Shown here: positions 1 through 51,964 of the stretch, piece by piece
How the letters are laid out: every line of letters starts with the position of its first letter
Numbering within the stretch: position 1 is the first letter of the stretch
NCBI GenBank assembly: GCA_022842685.1
Contig: JALHPC010000006.1
Location: 26,053-90,052 of the forward strand
DNA from: Candidatus Kapaibacterium sp.
Lineage (GTDB): Bacteria; Bacteroidota; Ignavibacteria; Kapaibacteriales; Kapaibacteriaceae
Length of the DNA: 64,000 bases
Reading direction: 5' to 3'
Notes under the pieces: generated by a model
Databases searched by the model: none
What the model was told of the DNA's origin: nothing
Seen by the model: the letters and a program-made list of their open reading frames with translations, nothing else
Made by a program: the position numbers and the translations under genes

Positions 1-4
1 TGCG

Positions 5-565
5 ATGCCCCTTGATTTGTGGTTGTTCTATGCCGTCAATCACGGATGGACGAACCCAGTGTTTGATGTCGTTATGCCCTTTGTAACGAGTACCGAAGTG
101 TGGCGCCCCATCTACGCCGCCGGCATCTTGGCCCTTGTGGTGGTTGGAGGGAGTAAGGGGCGCTGGTGTGCCGCGGCGATGCTAGTGGGCGTGCTGGTTG
201 CCGACCCCGCCAGCAACTATTTGCTGAAAGAGACGATCGGCAGATTACGACCGTACGAAGTACTTCCCGACGTGCTTAAACGCAGCGGCTCCGGCGGTGG
301 GTCGTTTCCGAGCAATCATGCCCTGAACAACGCCATGGCGGCCGTACTGCTTTCGTGGAACCTGCCACGCTGGTGGTGGCTGTGGTGGCTTCTAGCAGCT
401 ACGATTATGGTTTCGCGACTGTATGTGGGCGTGCATTGGCCGTCGGACGTTGTTGGTGGCGCAGCAATCGGCACGGCATGGGGCTGGGTGCTGTTGTATG
501 CATTGCGACGCCTGAACGCCGTTGTTCCAGAGCGTATGCGCTACGCGCCAACAAGCGCTTCGTAA
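5..565 (+). CDS. PAP2-family phosphatase (phosphatidic acid / undecaprenyl-PP phosphatase-like), possibly 5' truncated at the window edge
   Basis: PAP2 signature motifs are present: KETIGRLRP (KX6RP), PSNH (PSGH-like), SRLYVGVHWPSDV (SRX5HX3D). Hydrophobic TM segments. Confidence 0.75.
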   Translation: MPLDLWLFYAVNHGWTNPVFDVVMPFVTSTEVWRPIYAAGILALVVVGGSKGRWCAAAMLVGVLVADPASNYLLKETIGRLRPYEVLPDVLKRSGSGGGSFPSNHALNNAMAAVLLSWNLPRWWWLWWLLAATIMVSRLYVGVHWPSDVVGGAAIGTAWGWVLLYALRRLNAVVPERMRYAPTSAS

Positions 566-1869
566 GCCAGCACGCCACTGCGCGCCGCCCCTTCGAGCGT
601 AGCCGGCAACCCTGTTCCGGTCCAATCTCCGGCCAACACAACGTTCGCATACGGACGTGCTATGGCGGGCCGCATGGCCTCTATCTGCGGCGTTATGCAG
701 GGCGTTGCCCTGCGCTCCTTGATAACGATGCCGTGCATGAGCGAGGTACGCTGCATCGACGGTAGCACACGCCGCAGGTCGGCATCGCATTGGGCTATCA
801 CGTCGGCAGCCGTCTGCTTGGCTAATGCATCGGCGGCACTTACGGTACAGGCAAGATGTCCGGGATAGTCTCGCACGACCTGATCGGCTGACTTCCCTAT
901 CCTCCTTCGGTTAAACACCCACTGTGTTTGTGTGCCCAAGAGCGCCGCAAATGTCCACGGCACAACGTCGGCGTCGTACCAAAGGTACACGCTTACGATG
1001 GGCGAATAGGTGATGGCCGAGCAGACTGCGGGAACATGGGTGCTAGGCAGCAGGCGCTGCAAGGCATAAGGCGGAATGGCACATATCACACCATCGCACG
1101 CTATGGTTGTACCATCGCTTAGGCGTACGCCTATGGCGAGCCCGTTTTCGATCGCCAACGACTGTACCGACGTGCTTAACAGCACGGTGCCCCCGCTGTT
1201 ATGGACAACGTCAACTAGCGGCTCTACAAGGTCCGACAGGCCACACTCCGGCAACAGCATGGTACTGTCTTGTGGCGAGCTGCCCATAAAGGCCAAGCGC
1301 ATAACGGCGTCCAGCAAGCTGGCCGCCGCCTCGTGTACCGACGCGTTAAGCGTTGCCAGAACAACGGGCTCCCAAAACCGCTCTATGGCGCGCTGGCTTT
1401 GACGCTCTTGGGTTAAGAACTCATGGCAGGTTTTGCCGGCAACGGCAACGGCGCCACGCTGTATGCGCCATGCTAGGCGGGCAATGCCAAGGCGGTCGGC
1501 TATCGACAGTCCGCCAAGGCGCAGAATTCCCAGTGCTACGCCGGCTGCGCCGGGCAGCATCGAAGCATCCAGCACGGCGTGGCCGCCTGCTGCATCGGCA
1601 AAGTGAACCTGCAGGGCTTTTTGCCTGCGCAGCAGCGGCGCGGTACCGGCTACGTCCAGCATGGCTAACACTTCGTGGTAGCAGCCCATCAGCAGGTGCT
1701 GGCCGTTGTCGATGATTTCGCCCGTCGTTGCCTCGGCAAACGACCGTGCCCGGCCACCCACGTACGGATGTTCGTCGACCAGCACAACACGCCTACCGCT
1801 GCGCGCTGCGCGCGCGGCAGCGGCAAGGCCGGCCCAGCCGGCACCTATGATCACAAGTGGCAACGTCAT
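541..1869 (-). CDS. FAD-dependent oxidoreductase of the amine-oxidase/phytoene-desaturase superfamily, HpnE-like (hydroxysqualene dehydroxylase family)
   Basis: N-terminal Rossmann motif VIIGAGWAGLAAAARAARSG...VDEHPYVGGRARSF. DNGQHLLMGCY motif typical of HpnE-type desaturases. C-terminal AGDWTGTGLPATLEGAARSG. Confidence 0.5.
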   Translation of the reverse strand: MTLPLVIIGAGWAGLAAAARAARSGRRVVLVDEHPYVGGRARSFAEATTGEIIDNGQHLLMGCYHEVLAMLDVAGTAPLLRRQKALQVHFADAAGGHAVLDASMLPGAAGVALGILRLGGLSIADRLGIARLAWRIQRGAVAVAGKTCHEFLTQERQSQRAIERFWEPVVLATLNASVHEAAASLLDAVMRLAFMGSSPQDSTMLLPECGLSDLVEPLVDVVHNSGGTVLLSTSVQSLAIENGLAIGVRLSDGTTIACDGVICAIPPYALQRLLPSTHVPAVCSAITYSPIVSVYLWYDADVVPWTFAALLGTQTQWVFNRRRIGKSADQVVRDYPGHLACTVSAADALAKQTAADVIAQCDADLRRVLPSMQRTSLMHGIVIKERRATPCITPQIEAMRPAIARPYANVVLAGDWTGTGLPATLEGAARSGVLAYEALVGA

Positions 1870-18041: not shown

Positions 18042-19103
18042 CTAGGAAGCGGACGAGTCCGACGGGGCCGACGAGTCCGACGAGTCCGACGAGTCCGACG
18101 GGGCCGACGGGGCCGACGGAGCCGACGGAGCCGTCTGTTCCGACGGGGCAAACGACGCAGCCATAGCAGCCAAGCTTAGACCCTGGCGATTCTCGACAAT
18201 CGAGCAATATGCAACGCCAACGCTAACGTACGTTATCGTGGACAGTAACTGTGCGCCTGTTAAGGAAAGCATCGATGTAACCACGCGTACAATTCCGAAA
18301 ATGCCAAGTGACTCATCGTTCGACTCGCGAACCATGGTATGAACCAGGCCAACAATGGAGTCTGGAATCGCAAATAAATACGAACATATGCCCACAAGAA
18401 GCGAGATAACGATGTAGTACCCCAACATCCACCACCAGTGTCCACGAATGGTGCTGAAGGCAATCTTGACCGATTCAAGAAACCCTGTCTCGACGAACAC
18501 CGATACAGGAAGCGTAAGCAATAGCGCAACGCTTGCGTAAACTGTGAGAGGCACTAACACAATGAAGCCAAGAAAGACAATACCAATGGCACTGAACGTG
18601 TCCAGCGATGACGCAAGGGCAACGATAGGCACTGCAACCACAGCAGTGGCCAAAATGAAGGCACCTACGAGAGACAGAATGACTGCGAACACCCTGCTGG
18701 TATGCAGTGCCTTCGCTTCGGCTAACTGCTCAACACTGGGCACCGCACCAGCGTCACGATAGGCTCGGAGCCACGTCATCACAATGGCAGCATGCCAGCC
18801 GGCAACCACGAACAGCAGTAGGTAACCGAGAGCTATTATGACGCCCGACAACGCCATCTCGTCGACTGCCACCTCACGTAGGGCTTGTCCGATGGCCTCG
18901 ATGTCGCCCGATAAAAACGCCCCGAAGCCAGTAATCGTGCCATAGGCAGTAAGGCCAGCTGCTACAAGGAGCCACGGCAATACATGTTTGATGACATAGA
19001 GAAATAGCGACGAATAGTGGTGGCGAACGATGTCGATGGTGGCCGACAACGTCTCGCTCCACGAGCGTGGTTTATTAAGCGATATGTAGTTAGGATCAGA
19101 CAT
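18042..19103 (-). CDS. Polytopic membrane protein with Ser/Asp/Ala-Pro low-complexity C-terminal tail
   Basis: Multiple TM helices. C-terminal APSAPSAPSAPSDSSDSSDSSAPSDSSAS encoded by GACGAGTCC/GACGGGGCC tandem 9-mers (18040-18130). Confidence 0.4.
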   Translation of the reverse strand: MSDPNYISLNKPRSWSETLSATIDIVRHHYSSLFLYVIKHVLPWLLVAAGLTAYGTITGFGAFLSGDIEAIGQALREVAVDEMALSGVIIALGYLLLFVVAGWHAAIVMTWLRAYRDAGAVPSVEQLAEAKALHTSRVFAVILSLVGAFILATAVVAVPIVALASSLDTFSAIGIVFLGFIVLVPLTVYASVALLLTLPVSVFVETGFLESVKIAFSTIRGHWWWMLGYYIVISLLVGICSYLFAIPDSIVGLVHTMVRESNDESLGIFGIVRVVTSMLSLTGAQLLSTITYVSVGVAYCSIVENRQGLSLAAMAASFAPSEQTAPSAPSAPSAPSDSSDSSDSSAPSDSSAS

Positions 19104-29606: not shown

Positions 29607-30377
29607 TTACCACAATGGTGAGTAGACGCCAATAGGGATCTCTTTGCCGTTCTTGAGGCGAACAACGGCGCCCACGGGGCCATACTTGTGATTCGTAACG
29701 AACGTAACCCGGTCCATAATTGGGTCGTTCTCGGTAATGCTCTCCGTCTTGAGAACCTTGATTCGCCAGAAGTAGACTTCGTAATCGTCGGTCGTCGACT
29801 TATACGACACTGTGCGTGTTGTGCGCACGCCATCGTTATCGGTAAACGACCACGAGTCGCCCACATTCATGCCATACTTCACGATGGTAAACGGCTTCGA
29901 TTCGTTACCACGCGACGACACAAACTCTTGAATCCCCTCGGATGTGACCTTGAATTTGGGCTCGGCATGAATGCGTACGACGCCCGGTTGCGACGTGTCG
30001 ATCGTGGCGCCATATCGTTTAGCCAAGCCGTCAAGAATCGTTAGTCGCGCCTCAATTGGAAGCCCACTTGTGCCTGCAAGAGTATCCAAATCTAGAAGGA
30101 GCTGACGATCGAACTGCAGATTCACGTCCATCGTAACAACGCCACCCGAGCGTGACTTTACCACGACGCTATCCTTGAAGTTGTACTCCTTGCCTGGAAA
30201 CATTTCGTGGAGTTTTGGACCAGCATCCCACAGTTGACCAACATTCGTCATCTCAAGGTCGGTGTCACCAGAGATAACATTAGGGTCGTCGGAATCTGAC
30301 TCTACGAGTCCGCAACTTGACAGCACAGCAACGACTGTTGCTAGGGCAAACAGCCCAACGAAGTGTTTGACGAACAT
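29607..30377 (-). CDS. Hypothetical lipoprotein
   Basis: Start set at MFVKHFVGLFALATVVAVLSSCGL (lipobox). No recognisable domain. Confidence 0.4.
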   Translation of the reverse strand: MFVKHFVGLFALATVVAVLSSCGLVESDSDDPNVISGDTDLEMTNVGQLWDAGPKLHEMFPGKEYNFKDSVVVKSRSGGVVTMDVNLQFDRQLLLDLDTLAGTSGLPIEARLTILDGLAKRYGATIDTSQPGVVRIHAEPKFKVTSEGIQEFVSSRGNESKPFTIVKYGMNVGDSWSFTDNDGVRTTRTVSYKSTTDDYEVYFWRIKVLKTESITENDPIMDRVTFVTNHKYGPVGAVVRLKNGKEIPIGVYSPLW

Positions 30378-30458
30378 TGTTGTTGTCCAGATGTTAGTGA
30401 GTGTGGTTGATGTCGCAGCAAAGTTGGTCATCAACCGAATCAATAACTATGACAAATG

Positions 30459-30512
30459 TCACGTTTGCACGGGACGTTGGCACGGGACATTGGCACGGGA
30501 CGTTGGCACGGG
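30459..30512. repeat. 13-bp tandem repeat x3.5 (TGGCACGGGAC[G/A]T)
   Basis: GCACGGGACGTTG GCACGGGACATTG GCACGGGACGTTG GCACGGGCAGG read directly. Intergenic, upstream of the lipoprotein gene. Confidence 0.85.
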
Positions 30513-30530
30513 CAGGCACGAGGCCTGCCC

Positions 30531-31802
30531 CTACATTTTTCGGGTGTAGAGCGTGCTGAGCACGCGTGGCGCATGCGGATTGCTGTAATCAATCTGCTGG
30601 ACGCCTTCGCGGGTCGACAGTATCGCAGTGCCCCCTAAAGGGATGATGTCGTAGGCGTTCCATTCGGCCATATGGGAGAGAAGGCGAAGGTTGGCGGGCT
30701 GCGAAGCGTCGTAGATTTTTAGCCCGGCGCGCCCATCGCAAACGAAGAGCGTCGAACCATCGACACCAACGCCCTGCGGCTCCTGCATGAAGTACGATTT
30801 GACAAGCCTAGGATTCATGAGGTCGGCGATGTTGATGACGTCGAGCTGATTTTGCCCACCGCCACACATGGTGCCACTACGGAGCGTTACAAAGGCCAGC
30901 GAATCCGTGGCTACCACGGGGTCGCAAGCACGTGCGTGGCTAAACGTGGACAGCATGCTGGGGCTGGAAGGGTCTGCATTGTCGAAAATAAACATGCCCG
31001 TCATCGAGCCAATAAAGAGCTTGTCCTTGTATGGGAATATGGTTTCGATGCCCCACCCAAGGTTAATCCGCGACCATACCAAGGGCCGCGATGGAGTGGC
31101 AATGTTGAAGAGCTGCATGTCGGTGTGAGTGACGGCATAGAGCCACGATTTAACCACCGTAAAGCGAGCCATCGAGCCACCGGTACCCGTCTGGCCGCCG
31201 CCGCTACCACCCGAGGAAGGCGCTCCGGGTCCCTCAGCGCGATCACTTGAAACAGGCCGATCGAGAGGAACATCACCCCATCGGTATTGACCGTCGCTTA
31301 CGTCGACGTCAACTTCAACTTCGCGCCATCCGGTAACCACGCCCGAGTCGGGGTCGGAATAGTAGAACTCTGTAGCATTAAGCGCCTGAGGAAAGATGCC
31401 TTCGATGCGATGTACAACGCGGGCCTGCTCTGGATTGCTAATGTCGATAGCTACAAGGTCGACGTAGCTGTCAACATACATGATGTTGTCCTTCACAGCC
31501 ATGTCACCCGATCCAGGTACCACTACAAAAGCCACGTACCGTGGATTGGTATTGGTTGAATTGTCGACGATATGAATGCCTTCGCCGATCTCGCTTATCA
31601 GTAAATAGTTGCCATAGACATAGATTTTTCCGGGCTTGACAACTTGGTGTGGCGGGTCGACGCGCACGGCAGAGCGCAATGCTTCGTACGACATATACAC
31701 CGGTTGTTGCATCTTGATGCGAACGGTTTTCGAGGGACCGTTTGGGTCGGCGCAGGCAGCAAGAACAAGTGCAAGAATGGCAAACGTTAGGATGTGTTTC
31801 AT
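30531..31802 (-). CDS. LVIVD-repeat beta-propeller lipoprotein
   Basis: Lipobox LVLAACAD. Repeated motifs YLLISEIGEGIHIVDNS, MYVDSYVDLVAIDISNP, LFVCDGRAGLKIYDASQP. Confidence 0.5.
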   Translation of the reverse strand: MKHILTFAILALVLAACADPNGPSKTVRIKMQQPVYMSYEALRSAVRVDPPHQVVKPGKIYVYGNYLLISEIGEGIHIVDNSTNTNPRYVAFVVVPGSGDMAVKDNIMYVDSYVDLVAIDISNPEQARVVHRIEGIFPQALNATEFYYSDPDSGVVTGWREVEVDVDVSDGQYRWGDVPLDRPVSSDRAEGPGAPSSGGSGGGQTGTGGSMARFTVVKSWLYAVTHTDMQLFNIATPSRPLVWSRINLGWGIETIFPYKDKLFIGSMTGMFIFDNADPSSPSMLSTFSHARACDPVVATDSLAFVTLRSGTMCGGGQNQLDVINIADLMNPRLVKSYFMQEPQGVGVDGSTLFVCDGRAGLKIYDASQPANLRLLSHMAEWNAYDIIPLGGTAILSTREGVQQIDYSNPHAPRVLSTLYTRKM

Positions 31803-47775: not shown

Positions 47776-48080
47776 CAGCACGTCCCTGTGCCGAAGGCAC
47801 GTCCCTGTGCGAAGCACGTCCCTGTGCGAAGCACGTCCCTGTGCGAAGCACGTCCCTGTGCGAAGCACGTAACTGTGCGAAGCACGTAACTGTGCGAAGC
47901 ACGTAACTGTGCGAAGCACGTCCCTGTGCGAAGCACGTCACTGTGCGAAGCACGTAACTGTGCGTAGCACGTCACTGTGCGAAGCACGTAACTGTGCGAA
48001 GCACGTAACTGTGCCGAAGGCACGTCCCTGTGCCGAAGGCACGTAACTGTGCGCAGCACGTTCCTATGCGAAGCATGTCG
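47776..48080. repeat. Tandem array of about 18 copies of a 17-bp unit GCACGT(CC/AA/CA)CTGTGCGAA with occasional 18-19-bp variants
   Basis: Read directly. The unit contains the inverted repeat GCAC-N6-GTGC. Intergenic between the TPK and esterase genes. The period is not a multiple of 3, and the ORFs over it are artefacts. Confidence 0.9.
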
Positions 48081-51608: not shown

Positions 51609-51667
51609 AGAACCTCCTGTGTTATGTGGATAAAGCGGCTGATGCGAATTTACGATACACTTTTGTG

Positions 51668-51964
51668 TTAGGCAACACTGTCGTGAACCGCCCCCGTCAC
51701 AACCTGCCACGGCTGTATGGTATAGCGCTCTACCACTCCATTCTGCACGTACGGATCAAGCTCCACAAATCGCTCTATTTCGTGTAAGGGGCACCGAAAG
51801 ACTAACACGGCAGAGTCTGGCGGGTCCCCTACGGCACCTCCCAACAATAAGAACCCACGCTTGGCAAATTCATCGGTCAACGCCAAATGTTCCGGACGAT
51901 ACGGCGTGCGCTTTGTAACGTAGTCATCAACAACGTGATAGCGCAAAATGTAGTACGTGCTCAT
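51668..51964 (-). CDS. YciI-like protein
   Basis: 98 aa. MSTYYILRYHVVDDYVTKRTPYRPEHL pattern of the YciI/Dabb family. Confidence 0.55.
   Translation of the reverse strand: MSTYYILRYHVVDDYVTKRTPYRPEHLALTDEFAKRGFLLLGGAVGDPPDSAVLVFRCPLHEIERFVELDPYVQNGVVERYTIQPWQVVTGAVHDSVA

Follow-up and report, generated by a model that had tools for sequence, protein, structure and literature searches.

A short tandem array with a 13-bp period lies between two predicted lipoprotein genes of the window (the whole stretch of DNA analysed here, 64,000 nucleotides), and a first-pass annotation had related its core to that of a 17-bp minisatellite elsewhere in the same window. The locus therefore raises the question of whether the array belongs to a dispersed repeat family, serves as a set of binding or promoter sites, modulates expression of the gene beside it, or is a local expansion without function.

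The array itself is beyond doubt. TRF placed it at 30461..30512, with a period of 13, 4.0 copies, 92% matches, 0 indels and a score of 90, in agreement with the 30459..30512 and 3.5 copies given earlier; chance cannot produce a 13-bp period with 92% identity across 52 bases. The unit reads TGGCACGGGACGT on the plus strand. On the minus strand, the sense strand for both neighbours, the units run CGTGCCAACGTCC / CGTGCCAATGTCC / CGTGCCAACGTCC / CGTGCAAACGT. The variable tract proper spans 30461..30510 (minus strand) and comprises three 13-bp units and an 11-bp end unit, 50 nt in the window strain; TRF ends at 30512 rather than 30510 because the period continues into the arm of the adjoining hairpin. 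This is a head-to-tail repeat whose unit falls within the size range of VNTRs and minisatellites (~10-100 bp), and both the repeat and its position are direct observations. The only array in the window that TRF found to be larger is the 17-bp repeat.

Outside the array the unit occurs in the 64-kb window at chance rate only: with up to two mismatches allowed there were 6 matches, 3 of them inside the array, against 2.97 expected. A search of the whole window with Rfam returned nothing at gathering thresholds, and the tract alone folded no better than shuffled controls (z = -0.29 and +0.30). A coding reading of the tract was rejected, the overlapping ORFs of 50-95 aa being called in no relative. 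Length changes between strains come in steps of 13 and 10 bp, which are not multiples of 3 and would shift any frame, so the tract is non-coding.

Along the minus strand, the order is the LVIVD stop codon TAG, a hairpin, the four units, GACATTTGTCATAGTT, 72 further bases and the lipoprotein ATG. The upstream gene (30531..31802, minus strand) encodes an LVIVD-repeat lipoprotein of 423 aa with the lipobox LAAC (PF08309, E = 1.4e-10). The downstream gene (29607..30377, minus strand) encodes a predicted lipoprotein of 256 aa with the lipobox LSSC and without a Pfam family, and is followed by MarR and then DoxX genes, all on the minus strand. This layout was established from the ORF list, Pfam and gene calls on related contigs, and all three agree with the placement between the LVIVD gene and the 256-aa lipoprotein gene given by the first-pass annotation. 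The array is intergenic in the window and in the gene calls of all relatives.

Directly after the LVIVD stop codon stands a GC-rich hairpin, GGGCAGGC-CTCGT-GCCTGCCC (30510..30530, minus strand), in which a terminator scan found 8 pairs, 7 of them G-C; by its sequence this element 3' of the LVIVD gene is terminator-like. Folding of a 101-nt stretch containing the hairpin gave -34.1 kcal/mol (z = -2.8), and the predicted stable element of the region is the hairpin, not the repeat tract. The 10-bp units found in alleles of other strains, CGTGCCTGCC, match the end of the hairpin loop and the 3' arm exactly, so the building material of the array is local.

On its promoter side the array is bordered by a palindrome, TGACAAATGTCA (30450..30461, no strand assigned), that is unique in the window. 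Counterparts lie upstream of the orthologous gene in related species (ATGACAAATGTCAT in L001, GTGACATTTGTCAT in L006/L007 and ATGATAAACGTCAT in L183/L184), and the palindrome is kept in four species, even where MarR-DoxX is inverted (L183). It probably serves the lipoprotein gene as operator or promoter element, and the conserved regulatory candidate for that gene is the palindrome, not the repeat. Between the tract and the lipoprotein ATG, a distance of at least 84 nt, stands the palindrome. A sigma-70 scan of 30000..31000 gave no match; the organism may use another promoter type.

Alleles of the array were then compared among strains. Contigs of the same species, at 98.3-99.1% nucleotide identity, were reached by exact protein-sequence look-ups (DoxX, esterase and cluster members), and the tract was measured from the hairpin end to GACATTTGTCATAG in each fully assembled allele. 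Six assembled alleles from different samples gave tracts of 37, 50, 60, 60, 76 and 158 nt within flanks 98.3-99.1% identical, equivalent to 3, 4, 5, 5, 6 and 13 units when the truncated 11-nt end unit is included. The shortest (L156, 37 nt) is built as 2 x 13 + 11, the window allele (50 nt) as 3 x 13 + 11 and the L157 allele (76 nt) as 5 x 13 + 11, while the two 60-nt alleles (L161 and L162) share the order 13, 10, 13, 13, 11. The 158-nt allele of the VFQO contig (L080 = L166) holds nine 13-bp units, three 10-bp units and one 11-bp end unit. Unit order and point variants also differ among alleles (CGTGCC/CGTGCA, AACGT/AATGT, CATGC, TGTGC). When 10.4 kb was aligned to L080, the two aligned pieces joined at the array, with one other gap opening. 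Copy number thus varies among conspecific strains within conserved flanks, and changes in 13- and 10-bp steps are tolerated at this intergenic site; the polymorphism in copy number and unit and the conservation of the flanks are observed directly.

At least eight more contigs end within the tract and one scaffolded MAG has a 100-N gap there, breaks that are expected of a heterogeneous repeat. All alleles are taken from assemblies, the majority short-read or k = 31 based, in which the length of a run of identical units is beyond measurement, and some of the alleles may be population chimeras. An explanation by assembly artefact alone was rejected for the four short alleles, which we accept because their unit orders are unique and each tract fits within one read; the 158-nt allele is less certain. 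The array carries little biological weight itself. It is a usable strain marker for an uncultured Ignavibacteria/Kapabacteria-like population, and assemblies of this population break at it because the tract is a hypervariable repeat. The population is represented in, among others, GCA_006365035.1, GCA_036770285.1, SRR29704191, SRR12898366 and JGI 3300006417.

Variation between species was followed through the flanking genes. Database comparison of the LVIVD protein gave an identical entry on an NCBI contig of 90 kb and relatives at 88%, 86% and 66% identity, whose loci share the gene order and the palindrome and lack the array; more distant named matches are labelled Kapabacteria or Ignavibacteria. 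Exact protein-sequence look-ups recovered syntenic contigs of three related species, represented by L001-L003 (75-80% nucleotide identity), L004-L007 (77-81%) and L183/L184. At the orthologous site of L001-L003, L006/L007 and L183/L184 the array is absent, while gene order and palindrome are kept; this absence, too, is a direct observation. In the closest sister species (L006/L007) the hairpin stem is kept around another loop, GGGCAGGC-ACAGGG-GCCTGCCC, and is followed by GTACGGGCGGCCCGTGT and then the palindrome, with no array. Neither hairpin nor array is present in L001-L003 and L183/L184.

The sister species carries other GC-rich direct repeats right after the LVIVD stop codon and ahead of the hairpin, consisting of GGCCCCCCGTGGCCGCCC twice and a C-run (L006 4160..4215, L007 3165..3220), where contigs L004 and L005 break off. 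This spacer is thus prone to repeats in a second species as well, though the units are unrelated.

Our preferred reading, to which we assign a probability of roughly 65%, is that the array is a young, neutral, species-specific intergenic VNTR that arose in place by slippage or unequal recombination. The motif CGTGCC occurs in the loop and 3' arm of the hairpin and again just downstream, and these short direct repeats would permit slipped-strand mispairing or unequal recombination in two registers, through which 13-bp units (CGTGCCAACGTCC) and 10-bp units (CGTGCCTGCC) would be gained or lost. Tract length would be free to differ between strains because nothing would depend on the sequence or length of the tract; at most, the tract would shift the distance from the terminator hairpin to the next promoter. 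Slippage as the mechanism and the neutrality of the tract are what we infer. One point against neutrality is that the tract lies upstream of a surface-lipoprotein gene, a position in which expression-modulating repeats occur in other bacteria.

As to its kind, the array is a further example of the bacterial intergenic VNTR. Such loci are used in MLVA typing, for example the MIRU-VNTR loci of Mycobacterium tuberculosis, where MIRUs are 40-100 bp long and form a dispersed family. The array resembles VNTR/MLVA loci in having head-to-tail units of more than 9 bp that separate co-directional genes, copies and units that vary between strains, near-identical flanks, and no conservation between species. 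It differs from MIRUs in that its unit is only 13 bp, is mixed with 10-bp units, derives from the arm of a neighbouring hairpin and is found at one locus. The similarity between the 13-mer and the 17-mer is left, on the VNTR reading, as coincidence or remote kinship.

The 17-bp minisatellite that serves as comparator occupies 47777..48079 (plus strand) with 17.5 copies by TRF, and is built from units of the form CT-GTGC-GAA-GCAC-GT-NN. This array is also strain-variable. More generally, units of its family take the form CT-stem(4-6)-GNA-stem'-GT-NN with periods of 17-21 bp, and their stems differ while always remaining complementary (GTGC, GTGCC, ATGC, ATGCC, GGCC, GTTGGC). A structural scan of the window found 17 units, all in 47786..48078, against ~0.1 in shuffles; elsewhere it gave 2 stray matches in 1.18 Mb of other sequence and otherwise almost only loci of this species. 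A second locus of the family is present on L108, a 34-kb metagenome contig, which begins within an array (1..290) that adjoins an acyl-CoA dehydrogenase gene absent from the window.

In the VFQO strain, which is 98% identical, the TPK-esterase spacer contains an IS110-family element with the transposase domains PF01548 and PF02371. It is inserted within a 17-mer unit, as ACGTAA-CT-[IS]-CT-GTGCGAA with CT on both sides, from the target GCACGTAA-CT-GTGCGAA, for which the window carries the empty site. The element is ~1440 bp long, with a left end of 72 bp and a right end of 272 bp in an IS1111-like layout. Insertion of the IS in the 17-mer array is seen in L146 (4925..10000) and at the starts of L147, L150 and L152-L154; five Logan contigs from other samples have the same IS end at the same unit position, with 1.5 to 6 units after it. 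IS copies of 99% identity (L173-L179) are flanked by CT-stem-GNA-stem'-GT-NN units, giving at least four distinguishable insertion contexts, two of them with unique gene flanks. The recurrent IS junctions, the hairpin-unit flanks and the second locus identify the 17-mer as a dispersed hairpin repeat that is targeted by an IS110-family element; judged from its sequence, the family is REP-like and arranged in direct tandem arrays. Rfam gave nothing at E <= 1 on the IS region of L146.

An association of IS110-family elements with REP-like hairpins is known: IS621 and ISPpu9 insert in REP, and ISPpu10 requires a target hairpin (PMC11208160, PMC12288879, bioRxiv 10.64898/2026.03.19.712850). The 17-mer family resembles the targets of these elements in its short GC-rich extragenic hairpins, compensatory stems, presence at several loci and IS110-family insertion at one fixed unit position. 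Unlike classical REP/BIME elements, it builds long arrays of direct tandem units at a period of 17-21 bp. The 17-mer and its IS are a natural case of a recombinase of the RNA-guided type using a tandemly amplified target, and outweigh the 13-mer array in interest. The VFQO strain also has a 3.5-kb segment in the 17-mer array (L146 4943..8440), adjoining the IS and with 17-mer units on both sides; its ORFs of 875 aa and 184 aa are without Pfam families, and it may be cargo or a separate insertion.

The resemblance of the 13-mer to the 17-mer that the first-pass annotation had noted is real: 12 of 13 bases match the CCC variant. The core ACGTCCC(N)GTGC occurs 9 times in the window, always in the two arrays, against an expectation of 0.16. 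In cyclic alignment the 13-mer scores 10 against the CCC variant (12 matches, 1 mismatch and a 1-base gap), with P = 0.0047 against composition-matched random 13-mers, in a comparison chosen post hoc. The AAC and CAC variants score 6 and 8, the null mean being 5.4. Against all 19 unit variants the best score is 11 (P = 0.008), likewise post hoc and with three gaps against a 19-mer. At the sequence level the resemblance therefore appears to exceed chance only modestly.

To this were added two large scans with the pattern GTCCCN{0,1}GTGCSN{0,3}MAYGTCCCKKKSM. Among 185,579 species-representative genomes, a set that did not yield the source genome, there were 70 loci, 69 of them single-match and all in unrelated taxa, with one Paracoccaceae chromosome giving two separate loci; this is about the number expected by chance, which we estimate at tens. 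The metagenome scan (241 million records) gave 68 loci, and several matches per locus were confined to L080, which is this locus in another strain, and L108, the second 17-mer locus; a 13-bp array with the core was found at this locus only. Two unrelated high-GC metagenome contigs also contain the core (L144 326..375 and 1034..1066; L105 about 1399..1455), with features that include 15-bp arrays (ACACGTCCCGGTGCC three times) and a perfect palindrome with the core, CACGTCCCGGTGCC-T-GGCACCGGGACGTG. These matches were found because the search pattern itself selects the core, and the 15-bp arrays, probably unrelated, were rejected as family evidence on that account.

Could the 13-mer nevertheless be a degenerate, hairpin-less derivative of the 17-/19-/21-mer family that expanded in tandem downstream of the LVIVD gene? 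A 19-mer variant holds every base of the 13-mer in the right order (GTGCC-[G]AA-[GGC]AC-GTCCC-[T]), and the alignment scores of 10 and 11 (P = 0.0047 and P = 0.008) speak for such a descent, as do the strain variability of both arrays, their placement immediately after a stop codon with the same orientation to the upstream gene, and the dispersal of the hairpin family to L108 and the IS flanks of L173-L179. The 13-mer, however, lacks the hairpin that defines the family, and its derivation from a 19-nt unit needs three separate deletions. The structural scan found no hairpin unit within 30461..30512, where the 13-mer falls short of the family stem, and no allele of the locus contains a hairpin-type unit. 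No IS was present in 14 of 14 full or partial alleles, whereas the flanks of the IS copies consist of hairpin units only. Family members lie at several loci and serve as IS110 insertion sites, and neither applies to the 13-mer; in the missing hairpin, the single locus and the absence of IS insertion it also departs from known REP-like IS110 targets. The scores of the AAC and CAC variants are at or close to what chance gives on average, the pair was picked for comparison after the sequences had been seen, and the neighbouring hairpin arm can supply both the 13- and the 10-bp units. With no stem, three deletions, no hairpin unit, no IS, one locus and a local source, kinship is possible only, and we regard this derivation as unlikely. 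The dispersed family proposed in the first-pass annotation accordingly holds for the 17-mer, through L108 and the four or more IS-flank contexts, and is at most a possibility for the 13-mer. A broader version would make the 13-mer and 17-mer two branches of one tandem-expanding, lineage-specific family, in which 17-mer units would act as landing pads for a bridge-RNA-type IS110/IS1111-like element and the 13-mer would have escaped IS targeting; this we consider improbable. If true, host and element would be engaged in a continuing dynamic, visible at strain level, in which IS target sites are amplified in tandem and decay.

No evidence of a function for the tract emerged from the analysis. Unit number could alter expression of the lipoprotein-MarR-DoxX genes, by read-through from LVIVD or by geometry upstream of the promoter, and so produce heritable surface variation. 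The array shares with the contingency loci of Neisseria and Haemophilus a hypermutable repeat upstream of a (here predicted) surface lipoprotein gene and strong allelic variation, extreme among near-identical strains; it sits beside the conserved, probable operator palindrome, and alleles with 10-bp units hold extra hairpin 3' arms that could form alternative hairpins. In contingency loci, however, units of 1-7 bp separate the promoter hexamers, or the operator from the promoter, or stand in the reading frame, whereas the longer units of this tract occupy none of these positions, with the palindrome and at least 84 nt between them and the ATG. Only the hairpin and the gene end lie upstream of the tract, so no upstream site would be re-phased, and steps of 13 and 10 bp fall out of helical phase. 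A contingency role is thus doubtful on positional grounds. The first-pass annotation had also suggested a common binding protein, and identical repeated units with a core common to the 17-mer would suit iteron-like sites. The units are kept in 0 of 3 related species while the adjoining palindrome is kept, their number runs from 3 to 13 between strains, a 13-bp spacing would put successive sites on different helix faces, and the match to the 17-mer falls on CCC, where that unit varies most (CCC, AAC, CAC, TCC, CGC); absence from sister species and variation in number count against a shared binding protein, and iteron-like sites would be very unlikely. A cluster of plus-strand sigma-54 (-24/-12) promoters can be given practically no credence. 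Such promoters have the form TGGCAC-N5-TTGCW with fixed spacing. The hexamer TGGCAC, which had been ascribed to every unit, is present in three of the four, the first having TTGCAC; the TTG/GC element is displaced by 1-2 nt, and the motif is missing from relatives. A scan for the RpoN motif found 0 sites in the array within 2 mismatches of TGGCACGNNNNTTGCW and 17 in the whole window against 16.95 expected. A plus-strand promoter here would face the 3' end of the LVIVD gene in antisense, and no plus-strand gene follows. The array and sigma-54 promoters are therefore alike in the hexamer and unlike in -12 spacing, orientation and conservation.

Two further features came to light in the comparison of strains and in the window itself. 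A 1.4-kb presence/absence polymorphism distinguishes the window (51635..51693) from L146 (13512..14910): the segment contains a 443-aa ORF without a Pfam family, between HAD hydrolase and YCII genes, that is present in L146-L148 and L150-L151 and absent from the window and L149. At 18052..18149 of the window, a 9/18-bp tandem repeat is coding on the minus strand, where it encodes the low-complexity C-terminal tail APSAPS...DSSDSS of a 353-aa membrane protein.
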